From the IMG/VR virus record IMGVR_UViG_3300042988_001938: 64,000 nt of DNA; one strand, given 5' to 3'. This DNA is from an uncultured virus (IMG/VR IMGVR_UViG_3300042988_001938) (Duplodnaviria > Heunggongvirae > Uroviricota > Caudoviricetes). A program made the translations under genes and the position numbers. The notes beneath the pieces are model-generated. The model had not been told where the DNA came from and ran no database searches. It worked only from the letters and a program-made list of their open reading frames with translations. Position 1 is the stretch's first letter; each line of letters opens with the position of its first letter. Below are positions 16,050 through 32,152 of this stretch, in pieces.

Positions 16050-16089
16050 TCTGTTACTCTAACAATTGGTTTCTCAAAAATCACAAGAC

Positions 16090-17050: not shown

Positions 17051-17145
17051 ATTATTCTAACAACCCACTTCTCAAAAATCACAACTTCTATTTTTTTAGA
17101 AATAAAGGGAGAGTTCTGTGATTTTTGAAATTCCAGTTGTTAGAG

Positions 17146-17230
17146 TATTGTAGGTGCGAGAGCGATACGGGTTCAGGGAGAGATTTCTGCAGAGGGTAGA
17201 CTCCGACCTACCTTATATTTTTTTTGGGGA
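17146..17230 (+). ncRNA. putative small RNA cassette (family copy 4, inverted)
   Basis: After inverted motif 17117; GTAGGTGC..AGCGATACGGGTTC..AGGGTAGACTCCGACCTAC..T-tract. Confidence 0.6.
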
Positions 17231-17503
17231 GAGTTTCTAAACTTATAAAAATTCGTTTTTCCGCCCCCTTTTGAGGAGCGGTCAAGATTCAGTTTAACTT
17301 GGCTCTGCACACCCATGCAGTCAGTTAACACGTTTTCGGAGGGAGAGTTTCAGTCTCAGTAACCTTTCTTCATTGTCTTTCTCTTTTTGCTTATCTCTCT
17401 AACAACCCATTTCTCAAAAATCACAACTTCGTTATTCGTTCCGAAGCAAGGGAGGGAGAGATTCTTTTTAGATGGATGGGAGGGCTTAGCCCTCCCCAAT
17501 CTT

Positions 17504-18085: not shown

Positions 18086-18449
18086 GTCTATCGTTTTTTG
18101 TTTGTTACACTACTCTAACAACTGACTTCTCAAAAATCACAAGTTTTTAAGAAATTCTGAAAAAACTTTAAGTTTTTTCTTGTTATACTATTCTAACAAC
18201 TGACTTCTCAAAAATCACAAGACTTTCAAAAAGCTTTAAGCTTTTTTACGTAAGAAACGAAAAAATGTTACAAACAAAAGTTTATCGCAGGTCTGGATTA
18301 CCCTTGCGCTTTCTGTTTCACTAGCGGGCTTACACTACTCTAACAACCCAATTCTCAAAAATCACAAGATTTTTTTTTATTTATTTTTGACTAATGTTGT
18401 GATTTTTGAGATGATAATTGTTAGTATTATGTAACCAAACAACAAAACA

Positions 18450-18623: not shown

Positions 18624-19170
18624 CCCTTGTCGCCTATTTAAGGGGTCTAATGGATTAGCACCCTATACGACCCCCCTAGGGCTTAAATAAGGGGTCTATT
18701 TAGGCTCGCTCGGATAATAAGCCCCCTAAATACCAACCCCCCTGAGGAGGGTCCAGGACCGCTCACAAAATTTTCCCCAATTTTTTCCAAAATTTCTCAA
18801 CCAACGAATTCATATAGCCCCCAGAGGTTATAACACACAGTTAAAGCTCACAGGCGTTATAATTCTGGCTCAAAATTCTCAACCAATGAGCTACAAATAA
18901 AAAGAGGGGTACCCCAAAAAAGAGAGGGGGGGGTCGAAAAGTGCATCTGAAAAAATTTTTTCCCAAAAAAAAATAGTCAAAAATCTGGACCCTATTAACC
19001 ATCGGAATGACCAACGGAATTTTTACTAGAGAGTCTTGATGAATCCCTTACTGGGCGTGGTCTACAGAAGATTTACAACGAACGGAATTTTTTTTCTATC
19101 AACTAAGAAATAAGTTGACTCATCAAGCCATTCACTTACTTTTTTTTATTGGTGTAGTTATAATAAAAAT
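18624..19170. other. non-coding junction with G/C and A/T homopolymer tracts and short direct repeats (candidate origin / terminal-repeat boundary / pac region)
   Basis: taaggggtcta x2, ttctcaaccaa x2, cggaat x3, long runs; no ORF; marks the end of the motif array. Confidence 0.4.
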
Positions 19171-19173
19171 CGT

Positions 19174-19569
19174 ATGGGAAAATTTAAACCTTTTATTGAG
19201 CTTGAGCCTAAGAGGCCAAATAGATTTATTGTAGAACTTATAGGGACGGATGTTCAGAGTTGGGCAATATATGAGGCTAGAAGACCTGTGTACACACTGG
19301 AAGATGGGTGGCAGGACATTGAGATAGAGCTATTGGACCCGATTGGACCTTCAACATCTCAGGCTATATATAATGGAATTATAAATAAGGGCTTGAGAAA
19401 TCGTGAGATTCAAATAAAACTATTAGACCCTACTGGTATTGAAGTTGAGAAGTGGGAAATTAAGGGTGACTATAAGGTTATAAACTTCGGTGAACTTAGC
19501 TACTCTAGTGATGAATTAATGAAGATAAAAATAACATTCAAGGTATTATCTTGCAAACTGTGTTATTGA
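19174..19569 (+). CDS. T4 gp19-like tail tube family protein
   Basis: NRF.V, W.DI.I.L.DPI.PS, LLDPTG..VEKW, FGEL.Y.SD motifs. Confidence 0.8.
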   Translation: MGKFKPFIELEPKRPNRFIVELIGTDVQSWAIYEARRPVYTLEDGWQDIEIELLDPIGPSTSQAIYNGIINKGLRNREIQIKLLDPTGIEVEKWEIKGDYKVINFGELSYSSDELMKIKITFKVLSCKLCY

Positions 19570-19619
19570 TTTGACTATTTTTTCTATATTTAGAAGAAAT
19601 TAAAAACCTAAAAAACGTC

Positions 19620-19805
19620 ATGAAAAAAATATTTCTCTATATAGTCTCAGCCGTATTATTAACAACATACTCTTGCAAGACATCCAGTCATGGTAGTTGC
19701 GATGCATATGGCCAAGTAGAGGATAATCAAGAGAGCGATATTCATAAGCTGAATATTGAGGCCTCTAAGAAGTACATGACGGTTACAACGGTTAGACTAA
19801 ATTAA
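19620..19805 (+). CDS. small lipoprotein
   Basis: MKK + hydrophobic stretch + TYS-C lipobox-like site. Confidence 0.6.
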   Translation: MKKIFLYIVSAVLLTTYSCKTSSHGSCDAYGQVEDNQESDIHKLNIEASKKYMTVTTVRLN

Positions 19806-20022
19806 TAGAGGACTCTTCTCCGCAGTGGTCCTCATAGATTTTACATATTCTAAGCGCTGTCTCCATCTTGAGGCAAAATAGAAGGAACTCATCATTTGAC
19901 ACACCGTTCCAGGAGAAGTTAGCAGCCAGAAACTCATAGTATGCTCCTTCATAGAATTCTATGTATGAGGCCCAGCTTTGGTCTGGAAGTGAGTCTAAGT
20001 ATAATTGGCTTGGGATTTTCAA
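19792..20022 (-). CDS. HC-tail family small protein
   Basis: C-terminal ...KIYEDHC. Confidence 0.65.
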   Translation of the reverse strand: MKIPSQLYLDSLPDQSWASYIEFYEGAYYEFLAANFSWNGVSNDEFLLFCLKMETALRICKIYEDHCGEESSINLV

Positions 20023-20225
20023 GTGCAGTGTTTTTTTAGTGTTCTTAAATAAATAAGTTTGATGACATAATTTAGGTAAAATTTAGCAGCCCCTTGTCTA
20101 TCATACTCCAATGCAAGATTATATCTATACATATAATATTCTGCTTCTCCATAGACAGAATTATACTTGAGATTGATTATACCAGTATGTGGGTCAACTA
20201 TTGGCCTATTATCTCTCATGAGCAA
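20019..20225 (-). CDS. HC-tail family small protein
   Basis: Ends LKKHCT. Confidence 0.7.
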   Translation of the reverse strand: MLMRDNRPIVDPHTGIINLKYNSVYGEAEYYMYRYNLALEYDRQGAAKFYLNYVIKLIYLRTLKKHCT

Positions 20226-20443
20226 TATTTTTGGTGCATGATTTCAATTCTAAACTTTATGCTATTTATCAAGCTATTGAATAGCGGTTGAACCACAGCT
20301 TCTCTAGTAAACTTATCTGGTCCAATAATAAATTCACTTCCACTTGATGAATAAACCTTAAGCCCGTTGAAGTATTCGTCATACAGGACGTTAACTCTGG
20401 AATCTGTAATATCAAGAATTTCTTTAGTGTTAAAAATGAACAT
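20216..20443 (-). CDS. HC-tail family small protein (KYC variant)
   Basis: Ends IMHQKYCS. Confidence 0.7.
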   Translation of the reverse strand: MFIFNTKEILDITDSRVNVLYDEYFNGLKVYSSSGSEFIIGPDKFTREAVVQPLFNSLINSIKFRIEIMHQKYCS

Positions 20444-20693
20444 TGCAATGACTATTATAAATTTTTCTTAATTGAAGTCTGATTGACATCTCCAGAAATA
20501 TAGATGCAATTCTAGGAACGGAATCTATGAACTCAAGATATTCTTCATTATAGAATGAGATTGTTTCATCTATGGAGTTCTGCTCAAGACATTCATCTAG
20601 CCCATCGACTTCAAGCTCTCTCCACTCCAAGAGCTCATCATCATCGAAAGATGACCAGAATTCTTCTCTTATATTTCCACTATCAGATGTCAC
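20430..20693 (-). CDS. HC-tail family small protein
   Basis: Ends KIYNSHCNVHF. Confidence 0.7.
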   Translation of the reverse strand: MTSDSGNIREEFWSSFDDDELLEWRELEVDGLDECLEQNSIDETISFYNEEYLEFIDSVPRIASIFLEMSIRLQLRKIYNSHCNVHF

Positions 20694-20941
20694 TGGCAGT
20701 GTTTTGATTTAATTATTGCTGTCCTAATTGGTATTATTCTCCTCAGGCAATCTATTGCATCATGATATTCCCCAGCCTCTAAATTAATTGTTAGCATAAG
20801 CTCAGGGCGGTCTAGCTTATTTAAGCCCGTTGGCTCATAGCTCTTACCATTGATTTTATATGATACAATTTTTTGAGTATCATCAATAATTAGCGACATA
20901 GAAATGTTACTGTTCCAATTTTTATGATGAATAAAATCCAT
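20690..20941 (-). CDS. HC-tail family small protein
   Basis: Ends IIKSKHCQ. Confidence 0.7.
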   Translation of the reverse strand: MDFIHHKNWNSNISMSLIIDDTQKIVSYKINGKSYEPTGLNKLDRPELMLTINLEAGEYHDAIDCLRRIIPIRTAIIKSKHCQ

Positions 20942-20970
20942 GAAAACTCCTATAACCTCATCCTTATGCT

Positions 20971-21387
20971 TCAGAACTCATATACATTTTTAACTCTCAA
21001 CATCTTCTGGGATAGCCTAGCATACTTCTTAGGCTCATCATTGAACGACAGGTGATGAAGTCCATCAATAAAATTCTCAAGTCTCTCCTCAACTTCTCCT
21101 TCTCTTGCTCCTATAAGGTACAGGTGAGCCTTAAGCTCTGAGTCAGAGACTTCGTAGTTATATTGCTTGAAGGTGCAAGGGACGTTGCAGCTAACAAAGA
21201 TACTTGTAGGTCTCTCCTCTGGAATAAGAGTGACTGAACCACCAAGCTTCATAATTCTCTGGAGCAGATTCCTGGAGTTCTCAGATAGAGGCTGTATTTC
21301 AAACTTAAATTCCTTAAGCTGGACGCTGTAGGGATGAAGGGGAAGGGGAAGTTCAACAGTTGGGTCTGTAACTTGTTTCATATGCAA
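20971..21387 (-). CDS. hypothetical protein
   Basis: 138-aa ORF in a tightly packed minus-strand run. Confidence 0.7.
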   Translation of the reverse strand: MHMKQVTDPTVELPLPLHPYSVQLKEFKFEIQPLSENSRNLLQRIMKLGGSVTLIPEERPTSIFVSCNVPCTFKQYNYEVSDSELKAHLYLIGAREGEVEERLENFIDGLHHLSFNDEPKKYARLSQKMLRVKNVYEF

Positions 21388-21620
21388 TGTTTATTTTTTA
21401 TTTTCCTTATTATTAAAGTTATGAGATTTTTATATTCACTCAAGCAGGCTTCATAATTAATTTCAAGACCTCTTGAGTTAAGTTCTATTGCACTACTTAA
21501 CATAACATCTAAGTATTCAATATCATCGTCTATTGTCTTATTTTCACGAGAAGTTATTTCTATAAGAGCTTCAAAGATGTCAAATTTCTTAGATTTTTTT
21601 GATGTTAGTGAGTTATGCAC
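21378..21620 (-). CDS. HC-tail family small protein
   Basis: Ends KIKNKHCI. Confidence 0.7.
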   Translation of the reverse strand: MHNSLTSKKSKKFDIFEALIEITSRENKTIDDDIEYLDVMLSSAIELNSRGLEINYEACLSEYKNLITLIIRKIKNKHCI

Positions 21621-21918
21621 AGTGCTTATTTTTTATATTTTCAATCATTAATTTTATTAAATTTCTATTGGATGAGAAACAGACTTCTATATTACTGAGC
21701 CAACCTGCAAGAATAATAGGGTAGTAATGTTCAGCAGCTCTCCTATAGACTTCAATTTTCTTATCAATTGTTAATTCAATATTATTATTTTCACTTAAAG
21801 GTTCCATCGTCATTGATAAAAATGAATTCGTGCATGGGGTCAACTCTGAATATGAAGTATTCCTTCTCTCCAGAGCAAACCTCATAGTCACACTCAGTCT
21901 CTGTATCCCAGCAAACAA
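21613..21918 (-). CDS. HC-tail family small protein (true start probably ~21810)
   Basis: Ends NIKNKHCA. Confidence 0.6.
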   Translation of the reverse strand: MFAGIQRLSVTMRFALERRNTSYSELTPCTNSFLSMTMEPLSENNNIELTIDKKIEVYRRAAEHYYPIILAGWLSNIEVCFSSNRNLIKLMIENIKNKHCA

Positions 21919-22060
21919 TTAGGTCACCACCAATAATTACATTCTCCTGGCTGAGCTCATAGGTCTGCACAACAACGCCAAACTTAATTCCTCCAGCCTG
22001 GCAGACCTTATCACCCACCTCAAGAAACTCTCGATACTCTATGTCAATTACGTGTTGCAA
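21791..22060 (-). CDS. hypothetical protein
   Basis: TTG start embedded in the HC codons of the upstream gene. Confidence 0.65.
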   Translation of the reverse strand: MQHVIDIEYREFLEVGDKVCQAGGIKFGVVVQTYELSQENVIIGGDLIVCWDTETECDYEVCSGEKEYFIFRVDPMHEFIFINDDGTFK

Positions 22061-22461
22061 TGCTCTAACTTAATTTTTTCTGAATACAATATAATTTGTC
22101 TCATGATTAATTCTTCCATAAATTGAGTGTTCTTCCCAATACTGTGGCACTTAGTTATCTTAATATCATTATACCTAATCTTATCATAAAGTGACGCTTT
22201 ATTATATTCTGGAATAAATGCCATCTTAAATTCAAATGGAGTAGACCTATCTCTTCCAAGTATTTCAAACGTCTCTTCAAGTGTATATAAATCATACCCC
22301 ATCGCCATTAAGATTTGATTTAATCCACATGAATGAATTATCAAACTCAGGAGACTGGGCCCACTTGGCAGAGCCATTTCTAATAACCTTTGCTCCACAT
22401 TCTGGACATGGATTAGCTGTGTGAAGGTCCTCATAGAGTCCGATAAGACCGCAGTTCTCAT
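22048..22461 (-). CDS. HC-tail family protein (true start probably ~22308)
   Basis: Ends KIKLEHCNT. Confidence 0.6.
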   Translation of the reverse strand: MRTAVLSDSMRTFTQLIHVQNVEQRLLEMALPSGPSLLSLIIHSCGLNQILMAMGYDLYTLEETFEILGRDRSTPFEFKMAFIPEYNKASLYDKIRYNDIKITKCHSIGKNTQFMEELIMRQIILYSEKIKLEHCNT

Positions 22462-22678
22462 TTGAGCACTTATTCACATTTGCAAACGTTCCCTTAACAT
22501 ACCCGTGATACCTTGGCTTAAGATTCTTTGCCATTACCTTTATCAATCTAGGCATTGGAGGTGGGGAAGTTGCAATTCTCCTAAGGTCCCTAGGCTTCTC
22601 CTCCTGAGTATTCTTTCCTAGCTTATATCCAATAGCCATGAATAGTATGGATACAATTAAAAATTCAATCATTGTCAT
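22292..22678 (-). CDS. membrane-anchored zinc-ribbon protein
   Basis: N-terminal TM; CSNENC...CPECG. Confidence 0.7.
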   Translation of the reverse strand: MTMIEFLIVSILFMAIGYKLGKNTQEEKPRDLRRIATSPPPMPRLIKVMAKNLKPRYHGYVKGTFANVNKCSNENCGLIGLYEDLHTANPCPECGAKVIRNGSAKWAQSPEFDNSFMWIKSNLNGDGV

Positions 22679-22863
22679 GTGCAGTGTATTTTCATTATTC
22701 TATCAATCAAGAGTGGGATTTCACTTGTGAGTGAAATGGCTTCCATATATGTATTAAAAAAACTTATATATTGCATTGTGGACATAGGTGTTCCATTCAC
22801 AATTGTACCAGAAATTCTGGCAGAATCATCCCAAACAAGCTCAACATTAATGCTAAGAGACAT
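22675..22863 (-). CDS. HC-tail family small protein
   Basis: Ends RIMKIHCT. Confidence 0.7.
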   Translation of the reverse strand: MSLSINVELVWDDSARISGTIVNGTPMSTMQYISFFNTYMEAISLTSEIPLLIDRIMKIHCT

Positions 22864-23631
22864 TTATCGAATAATCTGAAGTGGTTTTCTTGCTCTAAAG
22901 TTATATAGCTTAAGAAGCTCATCAATAAGCATCTCCGCCTTTGGTTGGTCATGCACGATTGCGCTGGCAGACCTTAACTTCTCCTCCATCTGTGATGGCT
23001 TATATTCTGGGTGCAAGTAAAGTCTAAGAAGCGCACGAATGAATCTTTCCTTATCAGCGAAGTCGTAGTAATTTTGGAACATTTGTGCATGCTCGAAGAA
23101 ATCATCAATGTTGATGTCATCTCTAAACTGGAACACACCCTTCTTAACTAGGTCTGAATAGTTTCTGATAGAGTCGGTCATCTTACCAAAGTGTGAGATA
23201 ACTGATATTTTCTGCTTGTACTTAGCGGCAAGGTCCATCATTCTAATATAAGGCTCTCTATGTCTCTTAGCGTAGTGCTCAACATAGTCATTGATTCCCC
23301 AGTTCTTAGAAGCCTGGTTAATTTCTGCAGCAGCATAGATTTTAATGTCTCTGGAAACAATGAAGTAGATTGGCTTCCCAAGTTCCTTGCATGCAAGGAA
23401 TCTATTCTGTCCGTCAACGATGTTCATTTCCTTATCTACAAGGATTGGTTGATACATGGTGTAATCCTTTTCTCTAATGGAGTCACGCACTTTCTTATAG
23501 TGAGAAGGAACTCTGTTGAACTCGTTAAGCTTGAACTTGCTATAGTCTGTAGCAACCCAAATTTTAACTTCCGACTCAACCGCAAACGGTTCTTCACCAA
23601 CGGTTTCTGAATGATATTCTACGTCTAGCAT
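22864..23631 (-). CDS. ParB/Srx-like N-terminal domain protein
   Basis: PILVD...IVDGQNRFLAC motif. Confidence 0.75.
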   Translation of the reverse strand: MLDVEYHSETVGEEPFAVESEVKIWVATDYSKFKLNEFNRVPSHYKKVRDSIREKDYTMYQPILVDKEMNIVDGQNRFLACKELGKPIYFIVSRDIKIYAAAEINQASKNWGINDYVEHYAKRHREPYIRMMDLAAKYKQKISVISHFGKMTDSIRNYSDLVKKGVFQFRDDINIDDFFEHAQMFQNYYDFADKERFIRALLRLYLHPEYKPSQMEEKLRSASAIVHDQPKAEMLIDELLKLYNFRARKPLQIIR

Positions 23632-23708
23632 AATGAATAAAAATTTGTTATTAATTTATTTAGTAACAGCGAAGTTATGAAATGAAGATGATATTTGCAA
23701 ATTTTTTT

Positions 23709-23927
23709 TTATTTGCAGTGCCTATCTAGGATTTTTTGAATGAGGGCTGAAACCTTATCATCAAGTATTGCAAGGTCAATTTCTGCCTTCGCTATTGGTG
23801 TTAACTCAAGACCACCTCTAATACCAAGTATAGAAGCGCTGAAGCTCAATACAGAAGGGAACTCAAAAGTTTCACCTCCTTTAATCATGCGATTAAAAAA
23901 TTCTTCTGGTTTTAACAATTCACTCAC
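23709..23927 (-). CDS. HC-tail family small protein
   Basis: Ends KILDRHCK. Confidence 0.7.
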   Translation of the reverse strand: MSELLKPEEFFNRMIKGGETFEFPSVLSFSASILGIRGGLELTPIAKAEIDLAILDDKVSALIQKILDRHCK

Positions 23928-24081
23928 AGTGTTTAATTTTAATGTCTGTTAACAAGTGTTGTATTCTAGCTGCTAAAAATACAAACTCCAGTTTATTCTG
24001 GAACTCTGTGCTATTGAGCTTAGCAGCTGTTGGACTTGGTATATCGCTATACGTAATTCTCATCTTTATCTTCTTACTCAC
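23920..24081 (-). CDS. HC-tail family small protein (53 aa, not in track)
   Basis: Hand-translated; ends DIKIKHCE. Confidence 0.6.
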   Translation of the reverse strand: MSKKIKMRITYSDIPSPTAAKLNSTEFQNKLEFVFLAARIQHLLTDIKIKHCE

Positions 24082-24166
24082 AGTGCCTAGCTTTTATTTT
24101 ATTAATTAACTCAAGCAAGGATTTCTTAACAAAAAAAAGGCTTACCTTAACTTTTATATTACTCAC
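24074..24166 (-). CDS. HC-tail family minimal peptide (30 aa, not in track)
   Basis: GTG start; ...SLFFVKKSLLELINKIKARHCE; duplicate of the neighbour's 3' end. Confidence 0.5.
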   Translation of the reverse strand: MSNIKVKVSLFFVKKSLLELINKIKARHCE

Positions 24167-24329
24167 AGTGCTTATTTTTTATTTTATCAATTAACTCAAA
24201 CAAATCTTTCTTCACGAAGAAAAGATTTAGTCTAGCCATGAATTCATCTTCATTGATTGTTTTTGTGGTCCAAACCTTATTTACGTCAAACGATGGAGAG
24301 TTTGTATTTATATGTATGTCATCCGACAT
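24159..24329 (-). CDS. HC-tail family small protein (56 aa, not in track)
   Basis: MSDDIHINT...LFFVKKDLFELIDKIKNKHCE. Confidence 0.65.
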   Translation of the reverse strand: MSDDIHINTNSPSFDVNKVWTTKTINEDEFMARLNLFFVKKDLFELIDKIKNKHCE

Positions 24330-24332
24330 TGA

Positions 24333-24566
24333 TTAGCAGTGTTTTTTAAATATTTCGGAGTACTTAATTTCAGTTAGAACTCTTAGCATCGAGAGTTGTA
24401 GATTAAGGCCTCCAACTGAAAGTTTTTCTATGGCTGAGCCTGATGCTCCGACAGAGCGTGATTTACTGACTGGAGTCCAAGGGGTTGTAAAATCAACATC
24501 ATCAACACCCTTACTCAAGGCGGCCACTGATTGATACTTAGGCTTTCCTTTATCTGAATTGCTCAT
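24333..24566 (-). CDS. HC-tail family small protein
   Basis: Ends EIFKKHC; TAAATTTG box upstream. Confidence 0.7.
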   Translation of the reverse strand: MSNSDKGKPKYQSVAALSKGVDDVDFTTPWTPVSKSRSVGASGSAIEKLSVGGLNLQLSMLRVLTEIKYSEIFKKHC

Positions 24567-24592
24567 AGGTGCAAATTTAACAAATTAATAGC

Positions 24593-24826
24593 TCACTTGC
24601 AATGCTTTCTTATAATTTTATCAGTGATAATGACAACAAGGTTCTCAAGAGCCTTAATCTTAACACCATTGTCTGGGTGATTCCTTGAGATTGCATTAAG
24701 CCCTCTGACAACTTCATCCTCGGTGGATGAAATGCTCATATATATCTCTCCATCATAGACAAAGGAGCCTTTGCTATATTTTCCGAGGTCACGAAACTTA
24801 TCCCTATTGTATGAGAAGTCATCCAT
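24593..24826 (-). CDS. HC-tail family small protein
   Basis: Ends KIIRKHCK. Confidence 0.7.
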   Translation of the reverse strand: MDDFSYNRDKFRDLGKYSKGSFVYDGEIYMSISSTEDEVVRGLNAISRNHPDNGVKIKALENLVVIITDKIIRKHCK

Positions 24827-24960
24827 ACTAATAAATAGACATCAATTATTTCATATTATGAAAAAAATGAGTATATTTATAAATACGCTCGACCTGCCCA
24901 TGGAAGATGGGGGTTCTCAACTAAGAGTTCTTCAAGTGGGCTTCACATAAACTATTGATT

Positions 24961-25302
24961 ATGAAGAAGCTACTAATACTCGTTTTCTTAATGTTGTTCG
25001 GGAGCGCAGTCTCTCAAGAATCTCTTTTCGATGAAGAATGGCACCAAGGTCTAGGCAGTGACCTAGAGTACATTTGCTATCCAAGCTACACCAATGATAC
25101 ACTGAGTGTGAGGGTCTATAGGGGCACATCTGAGCAGCATCTTATGACAATTAAGAATGAAGTGGGAACTGTTGTCTACACGCAAGTGTTTAGCAGGGAA
25201 GAGGATTTGGACTTGTCCAAGCTTTGCAGTGGGGTGTACGTCCTAACTGTGTCAAATGATAAGACCAACCAATCTCAGGTAATTTTTGTTAGCATAAATT
25301 AA
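24961..25302 (+). CDS. signal peptide + T9SS (Por) C-terminal sorting-domain-like protein
   Basis: MKKLLIL signal; YP...D.L.V, I.N..G..V, LDLS.L.SGVYVL. Confidence 0.7.
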   Translation: MKKLLILVFLMLFGSAVSQESLFDEEWHQGLGSDLEYICYPSYTNDTLSVRVYRGTSEQHLMTIKNEVGTVVYTQVFSREEDLDLSKLCSGVYVLTVSNDKTNQSQVIFVSIN

Positions 25303-25376
25303 ACTCCTGGCAGCTTGGGCGAGGGGTAAAAATTGGGCTCAAAAAAAATTTTTGCGCTTTCCTGTTTTAAAGTTAA

Positions 25377-25697
25377 TTAGCAGTCGCTTGCATGGTCCTT
25401 GCAAAGCTTGTATGTTGCACAGTCTGGATTATCTTCATCGACTGGATTACCGCAGTAGCACTTATTGGGCCCAAGAGCTTTTTCTCTTGGAACAGCGTCA
25501 AGATGTTCAAGTAGCATTTTCTTAAATCTTTCATACCCATCTGCGAGTGAGAACTCTGAATCATCCAGACAAATTCCTATTCCATATAGGAAGTCATCAA
25601 TAATTGTCTTAACTGAATAACCCTCATGACCAAGTTGCTTGTCATAGGTATTCACGTAGTTCTTAAATTTTTCTAAGTCAAAATTTTCCATAATCAC
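25377..25697 (-). CDS. hypothetical protein with C-terminal Cys cluster
   Basis: CYCG...C...LC..H. Confidence 0.7.
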   Translation of the reverse strand: MIMENFDLEKFKNYVNTYDKQLGHEGYSVKTIIDDFLYGIGICLDDSEFSLADGYERFKKMLLEHLDAVPREKALGPNKCYCGNPVDEDNPDCATYKLCKDHASDC

Positions 25698-25888
25698 ATT
25701 ATATAAACATTTCCATCAATTATTACTGGGACTGGTGTGTAATCTGAGGAAACCTCTTGTCCCGTGCATATTGCATAAATTATTATTGCTAGGAGAACCA
25801 ATAGCAACGATGGCATAAGCAGCTTCATGACTATGTGCTCAAGCCAGGTATCATACTTACACTTTCTAAAGTAGTCAAAAAATATCAT
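25694..25888 (-). CDS. small membrane protein
   Basis: Single hydrophobic helix; overlapping start/stop. Confidence 0.65.
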   Translation of the reverse strand: MIFFDYFRKCKYDTWLEHIVMKLLMPSLLLVLLAIIIYAICTGQEVSSDYTPVPVIIDGNVYIM

Positions 25889-26067
25889 TGCTCACTATTT
25901 TCTGTTTCTGAAATGGAGTCAAATAGCTCAACGACTCCCATTACCCTCTGGTAGAACTCATTGAGGTCAACCTTGGTGACCACGCCTTGAACAGACTCGT
26001 CAAGCTCTCTATAGAGACTTTTCTCTCTGATGCTCTTAATTGTCTTGATTATATCTTGTGCTTCCAT
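25885..26067 (-). CDS. hypothetical protein
   Basis: Packed minus-strand run. Confidence 0.6.
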   Translation of the reverse strand: MEAQDIIKTIKSIREKSLYRELDESVQGVVTKVDLNEFYQRVMGVVELFDSISETENSEQ

Positions 26068-26824
26068 TTACTTTTGTTATATTAATTCCGTTGCTACGGT
26101 CATATTGAAGGGTGATTCCATCAAGCTCCTCAGCCACCATTACTCCATTTGAGATATTTGAGATAATCTTATTTAACTTAAAATAAGCGGTTGGATTAAT
26201 CATGTTGAATATGAGTCTTGGCAGTATGTTTCTAATATTAGAATAAACTTCATCATATTCTCTCTCAAGAGAAATGGCTTTCTTATATTCGACTCCAGTC
26301 ATTTGTACCTGTCCGTCTTCTTCTCTCATTAAGAATGGCTCTTCAATTCCGATGGGCTCCAGATTATTTGGCCTAAATCTATCTGGGTCATAAGAATGTT
26401 GCCCGATTTGTCTATAGAGGTCAGCGGTCCTGGACTCTCCATCAATAACTAGGAAAACGTCATCATGAATCATTGATGGTATGCATCTGTAAAATGAATT
26501 ATCACTTGCTGAAAACATAGTAGAACTTCCACTAAGATATTTATATTCATTGGAGTGTATTAAAACTCTTAATGCCGAAGTAGTAAGCTCTATAGAGTAT
26601 TTCTTTGCCGCAGCAAGCTTTTCACCCTTATTGTATAGCTCAGCGTATCTGGAGTGGCTTATAGTAATCCTGTCATCACCAACTGCCTTAGCGACATTAT
26701 CAGTTGCCTTTGCTACCTTGTCTGTTGCCTTTGCTACTCTATCCGTTGCAGCTGCAACTGCACTGTTGTCAATCGTCACACTTGTGGTTGACCTAACTAT
26801 CGTTGTTGTTGAGAATAGTCCCAT
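26036..26824 (-). CDS. hypothetical protein with heptad repeat (ATDxVAK)n
   Basis: ATDRVAKATDKVAKATDNVAKA. Confidence 0.8.
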   Translation of the reverse strand: MGLFSTTTIVRSTTSVTIDNSAVAAATDRVAKATDKVAKATDNVAKAVGDDRITISHSRYAELYNKGEKLAAAKKYSIELTTSALRVLIHSNEYKYLSGSSTMFSASDNSFYRCIPSMIHDDVFLVIDGESRTADLYRQIGQHSYDPDRFRPNNLEPIGIEEPFLMREEDGQVQMTGVEYKKAISLEREYDEVYSNIRNILPRLIFNMINPTAYFKLNKIISNISNGVMVAEELDGITLQYDRSNGINITKVNGSTRYNQDN

Positions 26825-26909
26825 ATCTATTTTTATTTTTTAAAGACGTTCGATAAACTAAAGAATGCAAGGCATCCTAGTAATAAAAGGTAAATAATAA
26901 CTAACATCT

Positions 26910-27176
26910 TCATCTTTCTAATTCTCGAATACAATATAGCTTTTCTGAGAAAAACATCGTAATGTCGTTTAAATCTTCTGGATTAACAATATCCAACATT
27001 TCATCTCCAGGATTTGAAATAGATTGAAGGATTTGTACGATTTCTAAGATAGCTATTTTAAAGCCCTCAGGGCCTTCATACTTTTCGTTTTTGTTAAGGA
27101 TACAAACTGGAAGGGCTTCAAAAATTTTTAAAGTCTCAGTTCTATTAATCACATCTCTAATTCTTAACTCCTTCAT
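26910..27176 (-). CDS. hypothetical protein
   Basis: ORF track, packed run. Confidence 0.65.
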   Translation of the reverse strand: MKELRIRDVINRTETLKIFEALPVCILNKNEKYEGPEGFKIAILEIVQILQSISNPGDEMLDIVNPEDLNDITMFFSEKLYCIRELER

Positions 27177-27402
27177 CTTCTGTTTGATTTAGTTTTTCAT
27201 ACATGTCCTTAAGACAATCTTCTGGATTCCAAAATCCTGGCCACTCATTTTCTTTGCCATCAACTTCCCAGTTCCAAAGTCCATAATTGTCTCTTCCACT
27301 GGGCAATTCAAGACCAGATGAATCTTCTTCACATCTTCTAAACTCACAAGTTATCTTGATGGAGCTCGTCTTTTTCATTAGCTCGATTAATTTATCGCTC
27401 AT
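27157..27402 (-). CDS. hypothetical protein
   Basis: ORF track, packed run. Confidence 0.65.
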   Translation of the reverse strand: MSDKLIELMKKTSSIKITCEFRRCEEDSSGLELPSGRDNYGLWNWEVDGKENEWPGFWNPEDCLKDMYEKLNQTEDEGVKN

Positions 27403-27418
27403 ATTCCTGTTTTTAATA

Positions 27419-28165
27419 TTATTTTAAATCAGATACTTTAATCATACCAACCCTGTGTTTCTTGGTATATCTAGTCTCAATCTTTGACTCTAGCTCAATG
27501 TCAGGCTTAATTTCATTTTTTGAACTAACCTCTCCATAGGAATTTGGGTCAACCTCTTTCTTGTAATACCTACTCTTAGTTTCGTCATATATGAATCCTG
27601 GGTCAATTGAAGTTACAATCCTATAAGGGGCTAAATAAGCTCCGTCATAAGGGATTGATTTGCTTATTTTATAAAGCTGCTTCCAAATTTCTTCAGATAC
27701 TTCTATTTTATGGTTTGTGAAAACTTGTCTATCACAAATCATACATGTTCCCTTGGATAAGTTAATCCCTCCAGAGTTTCCGCCACCCATATTGAAGGAT
27801 ACGGATACATGCTTAGCTGAATCGCAGCACATGCACTTAAGACGGCTGAATCCAGGAAACATATAATTGAGTACATCAATTCTATCTCCCTTGGTCATTC
27901 CTCCACCGCCAGTGAAGCAGGGCTCATTGTTTAGGTAGTCGTCTGGGACATCTTCATCAATTATAACAATGTGTCTATCACCGAATTGAACTGCGTCAAT
28001 GAATTCCTTATCCAGTTCAAGGTGTTTAAAATTCTCGTACCACATATTAAGCACATGAAATCCTCCAAGTGAAAAATAATTTCCGTAATCTACTGGATAC
28101 TTTTCTTTGTTAATACCCACGAGGCTAACATATCCAATATCGTTTTTAACTCTAACTTTTTGCAT
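27419..28165 (-). CDS. hypothetical protein with CxxC pairs
   Basis: CMCC...CMIC. Confidence 0.8.
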   Translation of the reverse strand: MQKVRVKNDIGYVSLVGINKEKYPVDYGNYFSLGGFHVLNMWYENFKHLELDKEFIDAVQFGDRHIVIIDEDVPDDYLNNEPCFTGGGGMTKGDRIDVLNYMFPGFSRLKCMCCDSAKHVSVSFNMGGGNSGGINLSKGTCMICDRQVFTNHKIEVSEEIWKQLYKISKSIPYDGAYLAPYRIVTSIDPGFIYDETKSRYYKKEVDPNSYGEVSSKNEIKPDIELESKIETRYTKKHRVGMIKVSDLK

Positions 28166-28168
28166 TTA

Positions 28169-28357
28169 TTAAAATTTTGTAGCTTTATCAAGCAACATGT
28201 CAAGCTCTTCTTTAGTATATCTCTTTGGCTCGTTTAAAATCACTTCAGAAAGAATATGATACATTCCAGCCTCAGTCCATTCATTGTGATGTGCGGGTCC
28301 AGTCTCTACAAGATACTTAAGCGCATCTAGTTGATTATAGTCTCTTTCGGTACTCAT
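28169..28357 (-). CDS. hypothetical protein
   Basis: Packed run. Confidence 0.65.
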   Translation of the reverse strand: MSTERDYNQLDALKYLVETGPAHHNEWTEAGMYHILSEVILNEPKRYTKEELDMLLDKATKF

Positions 28358-28360
28358 AAA

Positions 28361-28654
28361 TTATTGTTTTTTAATGTCACTATAGTGTATTCCACATTCT
28401 TTGCAGATAAAGTATTCCTCTAAAATCCAACTGGCAAAACCAGGTCCAAGTACACCGTTATTATCTCTTCTGCAGTAGTGCGTCTTATCTTTTGACTTAC
28501 ACAGTGGACACTCGATTGCGTTAACCCTATCAATCTCAAATTGCATCTCATCACGCTTTCTCTTCTCATTCTCTCTTTCATTGTCAAATAATCGAGACAT
28601 AAAATCAACTGGAGCGCTATCCTTATTGTCTTTTTCTTTTTCGTTATTCTCCAT
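28361..28654 (-). CDS. zinc-ribbon protein
   Basis: CPLC...CKECG. Confidence 0.7.
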   Translation of the reverse strand: MENNEKEKDNKDSAPVDFMSRLFDNERENEKRKRDEMQFEIDRVNAIECPLCKSKDKTHYCRRDNNGVLGPGFASWILEEYFICKECGIHYSDIKKQ

Positions 28655-29027
28655 CGTTAAAGTCTTTTATTATTTCGATTCTACCGTCTTTCCAGTGCCT
28701 AACAAATTGCTTGTGCTTATTCAGATAGACCATGGCAATTCCCTTATCCCAAGTTTCCTCTACAATTAGCTTGGATAGCTCTTTCTTGAAGGTCTCATTT
28801 TTCCAGGCTTCTGATTCCTGACCTTCAACCATGTGGCTGTCAAGAACGTCTTGCTCAAGTTGTCTTACTGGTTTTTCACTGGGGAATATTAAGGCCAATA
28901 CACAGATGATGATTCCAGCAGGAATTAGGAATGATGTAAGATGTGGCTTATTAGATATAGCTGGATAAAACATCGTTGTAATTCCAATAATGTAAATTAA
29001 GTTAACCAATATAAATCTCATACTCAT
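28644..29027 (-). CDS. membrane protein
   Basis: Two N-terminal TM segments. Confidence 0.7.
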   Translation of the reverse strand: MSMRFILVNLIYIIGITTMFYPAISNKPHLTSFLIPAGIIICVLALIFPSEKPVRQLEQDVLDSHMVEGQESEAWKNETFKKELSKLIVEETWDKGIAMVYLNKHKQFVRHWKDGRIEIIKDFNDGE

Positions 29028-29030
29028 ATA

Positions 29031-29696
29031 TTAATGTTTTCTATCTTGAAAAATTATTTCGAGAATTTCTTTGTCATAAAAGTTTCTTGAATCATCTCCA
29101 CCGCCAATTGAAGATTTCTCAACCACATATCCGTTAATATGACTCTCGTTCCACTCTGAGCCAATTACCTTGTAGACTGTTGTCACATAGTCGCTGGACT
29201 CATTTTTGTTTATTTCAATCATTGTAACTGGTCCAATCCAATCGTAATAGTCCTTCTTGATGATTACAGAATCACTGCTGGCATACATAGGGTTGTTGTT
29301 AATGGTTACAACTTTTGCCAGATAGAGCTCCTTGCCTTGAAAGTACTCGTCAAGAAATTCAAGCTCTGCACAGTCTCTTCCTAAAAACCTATTCTTCCAG
29401 CCTATTCCATGATAATTTCTATAGAACTGGTATTCAATCCAGCCAAAGAACCTGCTATCAATCTCCTTGGCTACCTTATCAAAATCTTCAGAGTATGTAA
29501 CCAGGATGTTTGTCCAATCAATCTTATTCTGGCATCCTCCATGGTCTGTGTGAGACAACTCTTCTCCGTGAGCACCAAACATGAAGGTGATAGAGTTGCC
29601 ACACTCATAGAACACATCTTGAGATTGTCTACTAGAGTCTGGCTGTCTCTCAAACTGCTTAGCTCCGCAATGTGGACATAATTCTTTTCCTATCAT
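29031..29696 (-). CDS. hypothetical protein with N-terminal Zn ribbon
   Basis: CPHCG...YECG. Confidence 0.75.
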   Translation of the reverse strand: MIGKELCPHCGAKQFERQPDSSRQSQDVFYECGNSITFMFGAHGEELSHTDHGGCQNKIDWTNILVTYSEDFDKVAKEIDSRFFGWIEYQFYRNYHGIGWKNRFLGRDCAELEFLDEYFQGKELYLAKVVTINNNPMYASSDSVIIKKDYYDWIGPVTMIEINKNESSDYVTTVYKVIGSEWNESHINGYVVEKSSIGGGDDSRNFYDKEILEIIFQDRKH

Positions 29697-30544
29697 AAAT
29701 TTTTAATTTCTGATGATAAATTATTAGCCTGTTCACGTATTTCAAGGAGCTTCACAAGCTCTGGACACTTTCTGTAGTCAAACTCTTCAATCTTTTTTTG
29801 TAAGTCCTCAATTGCTTTTATTTTTGCTTTCATACCTTCTACTCCATCACCAAAATTAAATCTATGGCTATCTGAGAATACTTTTTCAACCGTTTCCACA
29901 CATCTACTTTGCGTCCTTTCTGGAGTTGAACCATTCCACTTGACATCAACTTTGCCTTCTTCTTCAAAAATAATATACACGCCATCAGCTGGGGCCCCAT
30001 TTTTTGGTTTAATATAAAATCCTAGATTTCTAGCGAAAGACTGAAATAGATTTCTTGGCTCGTGCCACATGATTACTTCAATGTATTTGTCCTGAAAATA
30101 ATCATTTAGATAAGCTAGTGATGCATCAAACAAAATCTTTCCTTCGGTATTATACCTATCAAATATGGGCTTAGCCTTCTTTCTGGCTTCTATTATAAAC
30201 TTTACTTTATTACAAAAGTCAGATAGTTGTTTCGTGATGTCTTTATTGTAGTTTAGTGTGGTTGATGGGATATTTTGCTTGGGGTCATATTTATCTATTA
30301 TCTCAAAATCGTTGACCCAATCTTGTATTGTAGAAATAACTAAAAGCTTAACAGAGTTTTTGAAGGTTGCTCGGATAATGATTCCACTAAAGAAAATTGT
30401 CATAGCACCTTTTTCAAGCTGATATGTTAATTCTCCAAGATTACTTGATAGTATTTCAAATAGCTGTTTCTCTATAGGTGAATACTTTATTGTGTCGTGA
30501 ATCTTATCTCCATTACTCTTTATGTTTGTCTCAATTATATTCAT
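29693..30544 (-). CDS. hypothetical protein
   Basis: 283-aa ORF. Confidence 0.8.
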   Translation of the reverse strand: MNIIETNIKSNGDKIHDTIKYSPIEKQLFEILSSNLGELTYQLEKGAMTIFFSGIIIRATFKNSVKLLVISTIQDWVNDFEIIDKYDPKQNIPSTTLNYNKDITKQLSDFCNKVKFIIEARKKAKPIFDRYNTEGKILFDASLAYLNDYFQDKYIEVIMWHEPRNLFQSFARNLGFYIKPKNGAPADGVYIIFEEEGKVDVKWNGSTPERTQSRCVETVEKVFSDSHRFNFGDGVEGMKAKIKAIEDLQKKIEEFDYRKCPELVKLLEIREQANNLSSEIKNL

Positions 30545-30702
30545 CTGCAGTGCTTGTTATTAATTGATTTTATCCTTTCCTCTATAGATTGCATAAGTCG
30601 GTCAACTATGTTGTTCATAACTATCAATTTCCTTCTAATGCTTACTCTATCATTTTTGGAATCAATAACTTTAATCAACTTATCATATCGACCATCAATC
30701 AT
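30541..30702 (-). CDS. HC-tail family small protein (53 aa, not in track)
   Basis: MIDGRYDK...IKSINNKHCR; ATGA overlap with the next gene; TATCTTTG box upstream. Confidence 0.6.
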   Translation of the reverse strand: MIDGRYDKLIKVIDSKNDRVSIRRKLIVMNNIVDRLMQSIEERIKSINNKHCR

Positions 30703-31062
30703 TTTACAAAGATATTAATAATTAACGTTTTGCGCAAGAAATTTTGACTATTTATATCCAAACTTAAAAATGAGCGAAGATGGATAAGGAATTTGATGAT
30801 TATGATTGGTTTCCAGACCATGGATTATAACAAAAAACCCCATATCTTTCAACACGGGGTTTTTCAATAGCAACCGATGCACTGTAACACCAGTTTCAAC
30901 CAAATATAACATTAAAAGCACGACAGAATTATGCCTCTCTAAAATTATAAAATCTATAAAGTAAAATAAAGGTAAAAATAGAAAAAGCCACCCCCGCAGG
31001 AGAGTGGCTTTTTCTGTTGAACCAATAAAAAGAGACTGAGCCTCTAAGTTATTATCTTTTAG

Positions 31063-31672: not shown

Positions 31673-31702
31673 TTATTTATACGATTAATAAAAAAAAATG
31701 TT

Positions 31703-32152
31703 TCAATCCTCCTTGTAAAAATTATTCTCACTTAGATAGATTTTATCTACAACAGCTGATGACTTTCCGTCAAACTCTGGGGTTGATAGAATCTCTGTAG
31801 CTAGTTCATATCTCTTATTAGCTTCTCTTGGGTCAAGATTCAATATTGAATTAAGAAGCCAAATAACAGTTGTCTTGTTGATGTTATTTGAGGCCTCTTC
31901 CACCTGATATGCGCTACGGAATGCACTCCTTTTATCTGGAGACTGTAAAATACCCTTAATCCTATCTGCTTTAATTGTTAAGAGCTTTTGAATAATCATT
32001 TTACCAATATCCTCCTTATCGTCCTTAGAAAGGTATTCATCATGATAAAATGACATCTTGCAAACTATCTCATCCTGAACAGCATCAGATACTAGAAGTT
32101 TTCTGCCGTCATCCGATATATGCAAGTCAAACTTTACTTTTTTTATTTCCAT
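31703..32152 (-). CDS. hypothetical protein
   Basis: ORF track. Confidence 0.75.
   Translation of the reverse strand: MEIKKVKFDLHISDDGRKLLVSDAVQDEIVCKMSFYHDEYLSKDDKEDIGKMIIQKLLTIKADRIKGILQSPDKRSAFRSAYQVEEASNNINKTTVIWLLNSILNLDPREANKRYELATEILSTPEFDGKSSAVVDKIYLSENNFYKED

Follow-up and report, generated by a model that had tools for sequence, protein, structure and literature searches.

Shared terminal modules in described systems

The T4-type capsid targeting sequence (CTS) is about 10 residues long. In the published account, the T-even internal proteins are small, mutually unrelated proteins that bear this common terminal peptide and are encoded at a strain-variable locus (PMC3012670). The genes described here belong to a freshwater phage that has not been cultured and that probably infects a member of the Bacteroidota; they share with those proteins the principle of one address for many payloads: small unrelated proteins, a short terminal peptide and a variable locus. 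They differ in that the CTS is N-terminal and cleaved by the prohead protease, whereas the shared part here is a C-terminal helix with an invariant His-Cys; the CTS has no sequence similarity to this tail.

The poxvirus ankyrin/PRANC (F-box-like) proteins constitute a viral multigene adaptor family in which variable target-binding fronts are joined to a conserved C-terminal hub-docking module; PRANC, a recognisable domain of ~40-50 residues, binds Skp1 in eukaryotic hosts. In the phage, too, a conserved C-terminal module, for which docking is putative, follows variable fronts across a multigene family, but PRANC belongs to eukaryotic hosts with Skp1 as the hub, and the phage members are far smaller. 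Encapsulin cargo-loading peptides are short C-terminal sequences, common to unrelated cargo, that direct it into an HK97-fold shell. The phage tail resembles them as a short C-terminal peptide on otherwise unrelated proteins; the encapsulin peptides, however, are extended, rich in Gly and hydrophobic residues and devoid of His-Cys, whereas the phage tail is a helix that contains it. C-terminal membrane-targeting amphipathic helices are found in MinD and FtsA.

The Rad50 hook and the zinc clasp use Cys pairs (CxxC or CxC). The Rad50 zinc hook and the CD4/CD8-Lck zinc clasp have two ligands per chain and a metal site that exists only in the complex, where it holds two helical segments together (PMC9569753, PMC5093744, PMC12198760), and such intermolecular Zn sites joining two chains are established but rare (PMC9569753, PMC12198760). 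Their Cys pairs lie at a coiled-coil apex or in cytoplasmic tails, unlike the adjacent C-terminal His-Cys and putative Zn considered here. A comparable Cys pair per chain is absent from the phage family: each tail has one His and one Cys, and 10/16 members have no second Cys.

A row of small genes with a common end

The window, that is, the whole 64,000-nucleotide stretch of viral DNA analysed, contains 16 tail-bearing ORFs, all on the minus strand. Fifteen of them form a single tiled row (19792-24826), and the sixteenth stands apart at 30541-30702; each of the 16 tails quoted in the sequence-only reading was recovered in place. True member sizes are 30-87 aa. Several are shorter than the longest ORF, with starts set by database gene calls or by stop/start overlap with the upstream gene (21807, 20899, 20219 and 22302).

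The row opens with 24593..24826 (77 aa, ending ...DKIIRKHCK), 26 nt before the next start, and 24333..24566 (77 aa, ...EIFKKHC), which has nothing after the Cys and is the sole member with an outside ortholog (P0007, 55% identity; both termini are conserved and the middle differs). These are followed by 24159..24329 (56 aa, ...DKIKNKHCE) and the minimal member 24074..24166 (30 aa, ...NKIKARHCE), which has no ATG and begins at a GTG inside the Cys-Glu codons of the upstream gene. It had been described as essentially the tail alone, and so it is; over 71 nt it matches the 3' end of 24159-24329 at 82% DNA identity (family D3), and judged by this match it is a recent partial duplicate of that gene. 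Next come 23920..24081 (53 aa, or 47 aa from an internal ATG; ...TDIKIKHCE) and 23709..23927 (72 aa, ...QKILDRHCK), after which there is a 77-nt gap and no coupled start. A non-member, a ParB-like nuclease-domain protein at 22864..23631 on the same strand (255 aa; phrog_12305, E 1.7e-33), lies within the row, and beyond it stand 22675..22863 (62 aa, ...DRIMKIHCT), 22048..22302 (probably 84 aa, ...EKIKLEHCNT; the likely start is an ATG overlapping the upstream stop, and the longest ORF reaches 22461), 21613..21807 (64 aa by the database gene call, longest ORF to 21918; ...ENIKNKHCA), 21378..21620 (80 aa, ...RKIKNKHCI) and 20690..20899 (69 aa by the gene call, longest ORF to 20941; ...AIIKSKHCQ). 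The remainder consists of the loose member 20430..20693 (87 aa, ...RKIYNSHCNVHF, 4 residues past the Cys), whose front is very acidic (21 D+E vs 6 K+R); the loose member 20216..20443 (75 aa, ...IMHQKYCS, with Tyr for His); 20019..20219 (66 aa by the gene call, ...RTLKKHCT); and the row's last gene, the loose member 19792..20022 (76 aa, ...CKIYEDHCGEESSINLV, 11 residues past the Cys). A terminator-like hairpin (31015-30980) and a sigma-70-like site (30852-30824) precede the detached member 30541..30702 (53 aa, ...KSINNKHCR), the first gene beyond them, whose stop overlaps the start of a 283-aa orphan gene. The neighbours of the row are ParB-like, zinc-ribbon and other non-structural small genes, not head genes.

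The best hits of the 16 members were to unrelated families under curated cut-offs, at E 0.036 in Pfam-A and E 0.014 in PHROG. A profile scan of 1.84 billion proteins returned the family's own members, one metagenomic ortholog that was itself part of the query profile, two repeat artefacts and nothing else. Together with the Foldseek result given below, these searches uphold the proposal that no described family matches. We read the 16 proteins as a lineage-specific, tandemly amplified, signal-less family of small phage proteins.

Extent and composition of the tail

Among the stop-to-stop ORFs of at least 25 aa in the whole window (n=1358), 14 have HC at their end with 0-2 residues beyond it, and 13 of the 14 are family members, all on the minus strand at 20019-24841 or 30541-30714; the lone HC-ending ORF outside the family (+41310-41408) sets the background at 1 in 1345. 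Three looser members, 20216 (YCS), 20430 (HCNVHF) and 19792 (HCGEESSINLV), bring the family to 16. In a His-anchored alignment Cys is present in 16/16 tails and His in 15/16, a single Tyr being the only replacement in the His-Cys pair across members. Position -1 is Lys/Arg in 12/16 and position -4 is Ile in 14/16, and hydrophobic residues occupy -7 in 13/16, -11 in 14/16, -15 in 15/16 and -18 in 12/16. The tail ends in [K/R]-H-C, usually with one arbitrary residue added: after the Cys there are 0 residues in one member, 1 in twelve, and 2, 4 and 11 in one member each. Where Cys is penultimate (12/16), the final residue varies (T, S, Q, I, A, T, K, E, E, E, K, R). The presence of this extra residue is mostly a consequence of gene overlap, its codon being part of the stop/start junction shared with the following gene. 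With a tail HMM trained on the full set, member scores are 25.8-37.9 bits, and the highest-scoring other ORF reaches 10.5 bits. When members are left out one at a time, only 8/16 outscore the best non-member by >2 bits and 6-8 are missed, so the helix is degenerate beyond I-x-x-[KR]-H-C; six members owe their assignment mainly to the end motif and their place in the row.

The sequence-only reading had proposed an amphipathic C-terminal helix. Two structure models bear out the helix, but its amphipathic character has modest support, with Eisenberg hydrophobic moments of 0.08-0.50 lying close to those of shuffled tails (z -1.4 to +1.8). The helix spans roughly 20-28 residues, with a hydrophobic stripe at -18, -15, -11, -8/-7 and -4. 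Its hydrophobic face is broad, taking in -9, -8 and -7, and these three successive hydrophobic positions make the heptad pattern non-canonical. The His is within 30 degrees of the hydrophobic face in 10/16 tails and the Cys ~95-150 degrees away; net charge is 0 to +5, with Lys/Arg on one side (-5, -3, -1).

Codon positions and the question of a nucleic-acid signal

Conservation confined to the DNA level had been named in advance as one outcome that would speak against a shared protein module. Instead, codon positions 1 and 2 are conserved and the third is near random: over the last 18 codons pairwise identity is 0.52/0.53/0.36 at positions 1/2/3 against ~0.28 for random, and at Ile -4 it is 1.00/0.88/0.31. 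The tails use CAC 11 times and CAT 4 times for His (background 143 and 125), TGC 12 times and TGT 4 times for Cys (background 69 and 64), and every synonymous combination of the His-Cys codon pair except CAT-TGT. These patterns demonstrate, at the level of codon comparison, that selection on the protein maintains the C-terminal helix, and from the same codon-position pattern we infer that the ORFs are translated. Spacing between the stop and the following start is variable (an 8-nt overlap at one extreme, gaps of 3, 26 and 77 nt at the other), and in this comparison the motif's position tracks the stop codon, not the start of the next gene.

A nucleic-acid signal at gene ends, acting in translational coupling, RNA processing or recombination and reading K-H-C only incidentally, would suit the location of most tails at overlapping stop/start junctions, the four cases in which a TGT (Cys) codon and its 3' neighbour contain the GTG start of the next gene, the exact coincidence of a homology breakpoint in strain X4 with the His codon of 20019, and the mild preference for CAC (11/15) and TGC (12/16). 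It is nevertheless already largely refuted, and we regard it as exceedingly improbable, given the near-random third positions beside conserved first and second ones, the free use of synonymous His-Cys pairs and the constancy of the motif relative to the stop, which is kept even where a 26- or 77-nt gap comes next. Moreover, A[AG][AG]CA[CT]TG[CT] also occurs outside the tails: 11 of its 13 minus-strand occurrences are in member tails and 2 are not, and 3 more are on the plus strand.

Variable fronts and predicted structures

The N-termini were first noted as unrelated, and no shared motif was detectable in them by BLASTP or Gibbs search. The best match in N-terminal-only BLASTP has E 0.034. In the Gibbs search the N-terminal parts reached an information content of 11.24 (shuffles 11.39 +/- 0.18); run on the C-terminal ends, the same sampler reached 15.03 (shuffles 10.83 +/- 0.29). 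A T4-type shared N-terminal peptide is absent by the same measure.

AlphaFold monomer predictions for two members differ in their fronts. The model of 21378..21620 is all-helical (helices 13-24, 30-49 and 56-79; mean pLDDT 70, pTM 0.37), and that of 22675..22863 has three strands (7-11, 17-22, 25-27) followed by a 33-residue helix, 29-61 (mean pLDDT 87.5). In both, a confidently predicted helix (56-79 and 29-61) has the His and Cys in its final turn. The three-helix packing of the former is uncertain at that pTM, so its tail helix may do no more than form the core of a small monomeric bundle. For the latter, a 62-aa protein modelled as only a 33-residue helix and a three-stranded sheet, a stable monomer is unlikely. 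Foldseek found no match for the 22675 model in the PDB at E <= 0.001, and its best fold rows, none reaching Z 5, are the Wag31 N-domain (Z 4.3, rmsd 4.9, 53 aligned), COMMD (Z 4.3, rmsd 3.2, 59 aligned) and GpsB (Z 4.0). The DivIVA/GpsB N-terminal domain and the COMM domain, to which these Z 4.0-4.3 rows belong, are small dimerising strand-plus-helix modules. The claim of dissimilar fronts is upheld; the term "cargo domains" is too strong: only ~25-60 residues exist besides the tail, so the members are better regarded as single small domains that include the helix than as a tag on independent cargo.

Strain variation and the proposed origin of new members

Run X4 represents a related strain, mostly 90-99% identical, compared through single Logan contigs with 40 of 308 differences listed. 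At 20019 the His and Cys codons and everything downstream have no listed difference, while the 66 nt upstream of the His codon hold at least 24 substitutions and 2 indels; K-1 is changed to R, and the His, Cys and stop codons are unchanged. At 22055-22089, in the tail of 22048, there is again no listed difference, against 50 in the contig's other 456 nt. A candidate 276-nt in-frame skip from 24246 to 24523, seen in a single contig, would fuse the opening 14 codons of 24333-24566 with the tail half of 24159-24329. Tandem duplication is evident in families D3 and D9. Tandem duplication, in-frame deletion and the exchange of cassettes may all generate new members, and the breakpoints would lie at the tail.

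Possible functions of the His-Cys helix

The reading that we tentatively favour, while giving it somewhat less than an even chance, is that variable host-takeover proteins share a helix for assembly or docking, with an intermolecular His/Cys site as its cap. Through the hydrophobic stripe of this helix, members would pair among themselves or bind a single partner, of phage or host origin, common to all. The terminal His-Cys would supply half of an intermolecular metal site, most likely for Zn, or a reactive thiol that locks the contact, and the variable fronts would direct the members to different targets. Host takeover or counter-defence would be the most plausible setting, a role assigned by gene size and genome position. 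The whole protein contains only one Cys in ten of the 16 members and just one His plus one Cys in five; in such single-Cys members a four-ligand metal site would have to form between chains, and this "half-site" logic is consistent with the sequences. As a set of metal ligands a lone His-Cys pair is weak, and redox, catalytic or covalent chemistry would suit it equally well. In a bolder version, unlikely in our estimate, the His-Cys helix would be the universal plug of a phage combinatorial adaptor system, with metal-shared docking on one hub or in mixed pairs; one conserved interface would carry many fast-evolving warheads, swapped by recombination at the tail-coding DNA.

The members could also be ordinary fast-diverging paralogs in which the helix is the most constrained part of one small monomeric fold and the His-Cys is intramolecular or belongs to an active site (redox, catalytic or ligand), with neither a shared hub nor tag/cargo logic. 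Their small size, which leaves scant space for separate cargo, the tandem duplication, the three-helix unit of the 21378 model with the tail helix included, and alignments extending beyond the tail (21378 with 21613 over 51 aa, E 9e-9; 19792 with 20430 over 58 aa, E 3e-4) all point that way. We consider it somewhat unlikely, as N-terminal secondary structure differs between the two models (helices vs strands), the N-terminal motif search was no better than shuffles, the 30-aa member is the helix alone, and a monomer could hardly bury a solitary helix as long as residues 29-61 of 62. As a virion- or capsid-targeting signal, the tail would load diverse small proteins into the head for injection, a concept closely parallel to the T-even internal proteins, and the row is likewise plastic between strains (X4); encapsulin cargo signals, too, are C-terminal. 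This reading is distinctly unlikely, since the T4 signal is N-terminal and removed by the prohead protease where the shared part here is C-terminal, the members have no common N-terminal motif, and the row does not lie among head genes.

Basic C-terminal signals are recognised by ClpX, and the ssrA/ClpX-type degron consists of defined last residues beside the free carboxylate. The basic-hydrophobic protein end could accordingly be a degradation or chaperone tag, read by a host AAA+ protease, an adaptor or a tail-specific protease and limiting protein lifetime; the penultimate Cys in 12/16, the location of the motif nearly always at the extreme end and the basic -5, -3 and -1 positions resemble such signals. 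Yet the last residue is unconstrained, four members have 0, 2, 4 or 11 residues after the Cys, and the conserved helical stretch of ~20 residues exceeds what a degron needs. To our knowledge, known degrons have no invariant His-Cys, and a tag of this type is quite improbable. A membrane-targeting helix of the MinD/FtsA kind, bringing the fronts to the inner face of the cytoplasmic membrane, would agree with the C-terminal location, the one-sided Lys/Arg and the net charge, but is very improbable with a hydrophobic moment so unremarkable and the invariant His-Cys unaccounted for. A CaaX prenylation box, in which the Cys lies exactly three residues before the C-terminus, was considered and rejected, as 0/16 members have a Cys there.

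Implications

Even on an ordinary reading, this is a 16-member orphan family without relatives beyond its own phage lineage among 1.84 billion proteins. If the tail is a metal-bridged docking or pairing element, it would be among the smallest natural protein-protein clasps and would add a new case of phages diversifying host-takeover or counter-defence proteins around one fixed interface; protein engineers would also gain a compact assembly tag that can be switched by metal or redox state. The combinatorial adaptor system, if real, would be a bacterial-virus counterpart of the F-box/PRANC adaptor families, using an undescribed minimal metal clasp. The family row is a hyper-plastic region that will be of interest once such a phage is cultured. 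Freshwater Bacteroidota phages are almost unstudied, and a docking or pairing element of this kind, if confirmed, would help in understanding them.

A Row of Small Proteins with a Common His-Cys Tail

The minus strand between 24826 and 19792 is tiled by 19 short genes, mostly with overlapping stop/start junctions. A His-Cys motif ends 15 of them, as well as one further gene at 30702-30541. In-row genes outside the family are the ParB-like 22864-23631, the membrane zinc-ribbon gene 22292-22678, 20971-21387 and 21791-22060. All 16 tails quoted in the sequence-only reading are present in the sequence, and the observation that they are shared is confirmed. The six frames of the whole window contain 1358 stop-to-stop ORFs no shorter than 25 aa, and 14 of them terminate in His-Cys followed by 0-2 residues; 13 are minus-strand genes of the row family, and the remaining one, of 32 aa, lies elsewhere in the window. 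Three members are looser: 20216 has Tyr for His, the sole replacement, and 20430 and 19792 carry 4 and 11 extra residues, respectively, after the Cys. Anchored on the His, the alignment has Cys in 16/16 members, His in 15/16, Lys or Arg at -1 in 12/16 and Ile at -4 in 14/16, with hydrophobic residues at -7 (13/16), -11 (14/16), -15 (15/16) and -18 (12/16). The tail was originally described as an amphipathic helix. Its hydrophobicity is most strongly periodic at 3.6-4.0 residues, which is helix-like, but amphipathicity is modest at best, as the hydrophobic moments (0.08-0.50) are no better than those of shuffles. An HMM of the last 28 residues, built from the members themselves, scores them at 25.8-37.9 bits versus at most 10.5 bits for any other ORF. 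Leave-one-out runs place 8 of the 16 clearly above background, and this weak recovery indicates that the helix is degenerate and that the hard core of the tail is I-x-x-[KR]-H-C.

Conservation at the Protein Level

The invariant residues are encoded by synonymous codons: tail His by CAC (11) or CAT (4) and tail Cys by TGC (12) or TGT (4), with background usage in the window's long ORFs being about equal (CAT 125, CAC 143; TGT 64, TGC 69). Averaged over pairs, nucleotide identity across the final 18 codons is 0.52 at codon position 1, 0.53 at position 2 and 0.36 at position 3, compared with ~0.28 for random pairs; for the Ile codon at -4 the corresponding values are 1.00, 0.88 and 0.31. The motif lies at a constant distance from the stop codon but not from the start that comes after it, the stop being followed by overlaps of 8 nt and 4 nt or by gaps of 3, 26 and 77 nt. 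Conservation at the DNA level only, named beforehand as one refutation, is not what is found: codon positions 1 and 2 are conserved and position 3 is near random. Taken together, synonymous variation, codon-position identities and a stop-anchored motif make a purely DNA- or RNA-level signal very unlikely, and the codon-position pattern is the one, indirect, sign that the ORFs may be translated.

A single variable residue follows the Cys in 12/16 members. Its codon and the stop form ATGA, GTGA or TTGA with the next start, and the residue is best explained as a product of this gene layout. At four junctions (24166, 24081, 23927 and 21620, minus strand) the next gene begins at a GTG contained within the Cys codon TGT and the codon behind it. 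At the three GAG junctions (24166, 24081 and 23927), 'C-E-stop' becomes 'M-S-x' one base later; a Met-Ser start is seen in 7/16 members.

Variable Fronts and a Plastic Locus

Once the tails (25 residues each) are cut off, the best alignment between any two members has an E of 0.034. A Gibbs search of the front parts found no shared 8-residue motif beyond shuffles (information 11.24 vs 11.39 +/- 0.18), and the same sampler applied to the C-terminal ends recovered the tail (15.03 vs 10.83 +/- 0.29 for shuffles). AlphaFold2 models made with the paralog alignment also differ: 21378-21620 is predicted to form three helices (mean pLDDT 70, pTM 0.37) and 22675-22863 a single 33-residue helix preceded by three short strands (pLDDT 87.5), with His and Cys in the last helical turn of both. 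Alignments, Gibbs search and models all bear out the earlier impression of unrelated N-termini. The accompanying idea of variable cargo domains survives in part: the fronts are variable, but independent cargo is not supported, as the proteins measure only 30-87 aa after start correction. Members of this size are better regarded as single small units around a common helix than as a tag on independent cargo. Elsewhere in the window, a possible second shared terminal peptide is found in two small genes of the left block, 13906-14145 and 16366-16731 (both minus strand), whose first 17 residues are 76% identical and which have nothing else in common.

Recent tandem duplication is evident at 24074/24159 (82% over 71 nt) and 21385/21620 (73% over 49 nt). 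Logan contigs of four other sequencing runs were compared with 19500-31000. The phage is present in the independent sample X3, where 16 of the 18 pieces reach at least 99%, and run X4 contains a diverged strain (45 pieces, mostly 90-99% or lower), for which the following points derive from single contigs and from 40 of 308 differences listed. In gene 20019, the codon before the His changes from AAA to AGG (Lys to Arg); the His, the Cys, the last codon and the stop are without difference among the 40 listed, and 24 substitutions plus two compensating indels fall within the 66 nt directly upstream. A contig over 22055-22545 has 50 differences, and its first 35 nt, which encode the tail of 22048, contain none of those listed. 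Another contig omits 276 nt (24246 to 24523), in frame by arithmetic, the intervening letters at the joint being 'not known'; this skip would fuse codons 1-14 of 24333-24566 with the tail-bearing half of 24159-24329. Such single-contig observations are consistent with a row that is plastic yet keeps its tail. A joint in run X5 (19613/20027) was set aside, one of its sides being only 20 letters long.

Relatives and Distribution

The family has no match in Pfam or PHROG and no usable neighbour was found in the ESM Atlas, while fold matches were not convincing (best BFVD E 1.6; best PDB Foldseek E 1.2; best VIA wide Z 4.3). A HMMER tail profile, with a sensitivity of 9/16 for known members, gave 12 matches at E <= 0.001 over 1.84 billion representative proteins: nine window proteins, two low-complexity repeat proteins that are artefacts, and P0007, a metagenomic ortholog from outside the window that formed part of the query alignment and so matches by construction. 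An earlier, independent word-indexed search with profile A1 had already turned up P0007, at E 3.8, alongside six window proteins; its identity to 24333-24566 is 55%, the two sharing their ends and differing in the middle. According to its protein database record, the window is a portion of a large phage contig of 137,481 bp, and the profile matches, at that sensitivity of 9/16, include no further members on the remainder of it.

A megablast comparison of 19000-31000 with 50,697 phage records gave no match, nor did tblastn with a 283-aa orphan encoded directly after 30541-30702 and a 616-aa baseplate-like protein. Nothing was confirmed by scans of IMG/VR (with alignment A5 and with a ParB-like protein encoded within the row at 22864-23631), JGI metagenome contigs (alignments A2 and A5) or GTDB genome contigs (A5). 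No related locus was found in these three collections or in GenBank phages. Relatives of the ParB-like protein are only 24-32% identical and occur in Flavobacterium, Streptococcus and Enterococcus phages; those of the 283-aa protein, at 47% and 31% identity, lie solely on contigs of 1.5-2 kb. The tail patterns KIKNKHC (32 loci) and IKNKHC-x-stop (31 loci) yielded only chance hits, with stops or junk upstream and no rows of HC tails. Among the named families compared, none has a defining feature that the His-Cys proteins clearly show, and a full-text literature search found no description of a phage small-protein family of this kind. The initial claim of novelty holds for Pfam, PHROG and the literature searched; judged by its sequences, the family is new, with a single phage lineage as its whole range to date.

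The Phage, Its Likely Host and Regulatory Elements

The sequencing runs that best match the DNA of the window are freshwater metagenomes, and no RNA run is among those listed. The window encodes NAD-salvage genes, a CCA-adding enzyme, thymidylate synthase, kinases, a baseplate-like protein and one tRNA-Arg. Divergent from the row, the plus-strand gene 24955-25302 encodes a 115-aa protein that combines a signal peptide with a C-terminal sorting domain of type IX secretion (PF18962; E 1.7e-6; 28.7 bits, cut-off 27). This protein is the main clue to the host and, given the known restriction of that secretion system, points to Bacteroidota. The NAD-salvage block (37651-41459, minus; 42427-43848 and 32592-33164, plus) sits beside the CCA-adding enzyme and adenylate kinase and encodes a NadE-like synthetase, a cytidylyltransferase-like/NMNAT-like protein, a Nudix hydrolase and a nicotinamide phosphoribosyltransferase; the NadE-like protein is 42-50% identical to counterparts in marine cyanophages and uncultured marine viruses. 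Within the 616-aa baseplate-like gene (55733-57583, minus), at least 10 copies of a 45-nt (15-aa) imperfect tandem repeat (56169-57192, 60-88% identity) suggest a repetitive beta-helix or fibre segment.

A 27-nt motif, TCTAACAA-N8-TCAAAAATCAC, occurs in 51 copies at 35-18425 (0-1 mismatch), where 0.03 would be expected by chance. On the plus strand there are 49 copies, roughly one every 370 bp, so placed that almost all small minus-strand genes have one 5-30 nt upstream of their ATG; the other two copies (17118 and 18399), on the minus strand, face plus-strand genes. The motif is absent from 18.5-64 kb of the window, and the His-Cys row lies just outside the motif block. The motif resembles a promoter or 5'-leader element specific to the phage, and its coding-strand form contains GATTTTTG, which is close to the Bacteroidota -7 box. 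Sigma-70-like sites number 60 against 47.4 +/- 7.3 in shuffles, a count that makes the promoter scan uninformative for a host that is probably a member of Bacteroidota. A rarer element, TTA(T)ACGA-N12-AAAAAATGTT(T/A)CA, with five plus-strand copies (31677-31705, 41483-41511, 41910-41938, 10312-10342 and 18243-18273), is possibly another regulatory site.

What the Tail May Do

A 33-residue helix on a 62-aa protein could hardly be buried in a monomer, which argues that the tail helix may serve as an interface; the His lies at most 30 degrees from its hydrophobic face in 10/16 members. The His-Cys would then act between chains. The tail Cys is the sole Cys in 10 members, and in five the tail His and Cys are the sole His and Cys, which leaves a single chain unable to build a four-ligand site. 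With two helices in parallel, two His and two Cys would meet, the classical tetrahedral zinc ligand set. Zinc sites built between chains in this way are known, though rare, as in the Rad50 hook and the CD4/CD8-Lck clasp (PMC9569753, PMC12198760). Zinc-ribbon-like CxxC...CxxC pairs occur in neighbouring orphan genes at 22292-22678, 25377-25697, 28361-28654, 27419-28165 and 29031-29696 (all minus strand), the first of which lies inside the row and has its pairs after an N-terminal membrane helix. Their products are possible metal-sharing partners of the members.

Other explanations have to be weighed against this one. A plain paralog family with a monomeric fold would keep that long helix within a single chain, and we consider it rather unlikely. 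The tail could also load the proteins into the virion, close in logic to the T-even capsid targeting sequence, but the T-even signal is N-terminal (PMC3012670) and the tail here is C-terminal, leaving this role improbable. A shade less probable again is a C-terminal degron, which the penultimate Cys of 12/16 members would suit, whereas the unconstrained final residue and the four members out of register would not. Membrane targeting by the helix would leave the His-Cys unexplained and gains little from the weak hydrophobic moment, so that we give it little credence; a nucleic-acid signal, disfavored by the codon-position data, deserves scarcely any.

The interpretation first put forward is partly supported: the shared module and its novelty stand, and its function is a proposal. 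Precedents exist in kind, namely hyper-variable phage multigene loci whose members share one terminal module; an invariant terminal His-Cys on a helix is a feature for which the full-text literature searched gave no description. In the reading we favor, the variable fronts would hit different targets in host takeover or counter-defence, a role only suggested by gene size, an operon-like layout among non-structural genes and strain plasticity. As a whole, the chain from helix interface through inter-chain His-Cys to fronts on different targets is tentative, plausible rather than probable.
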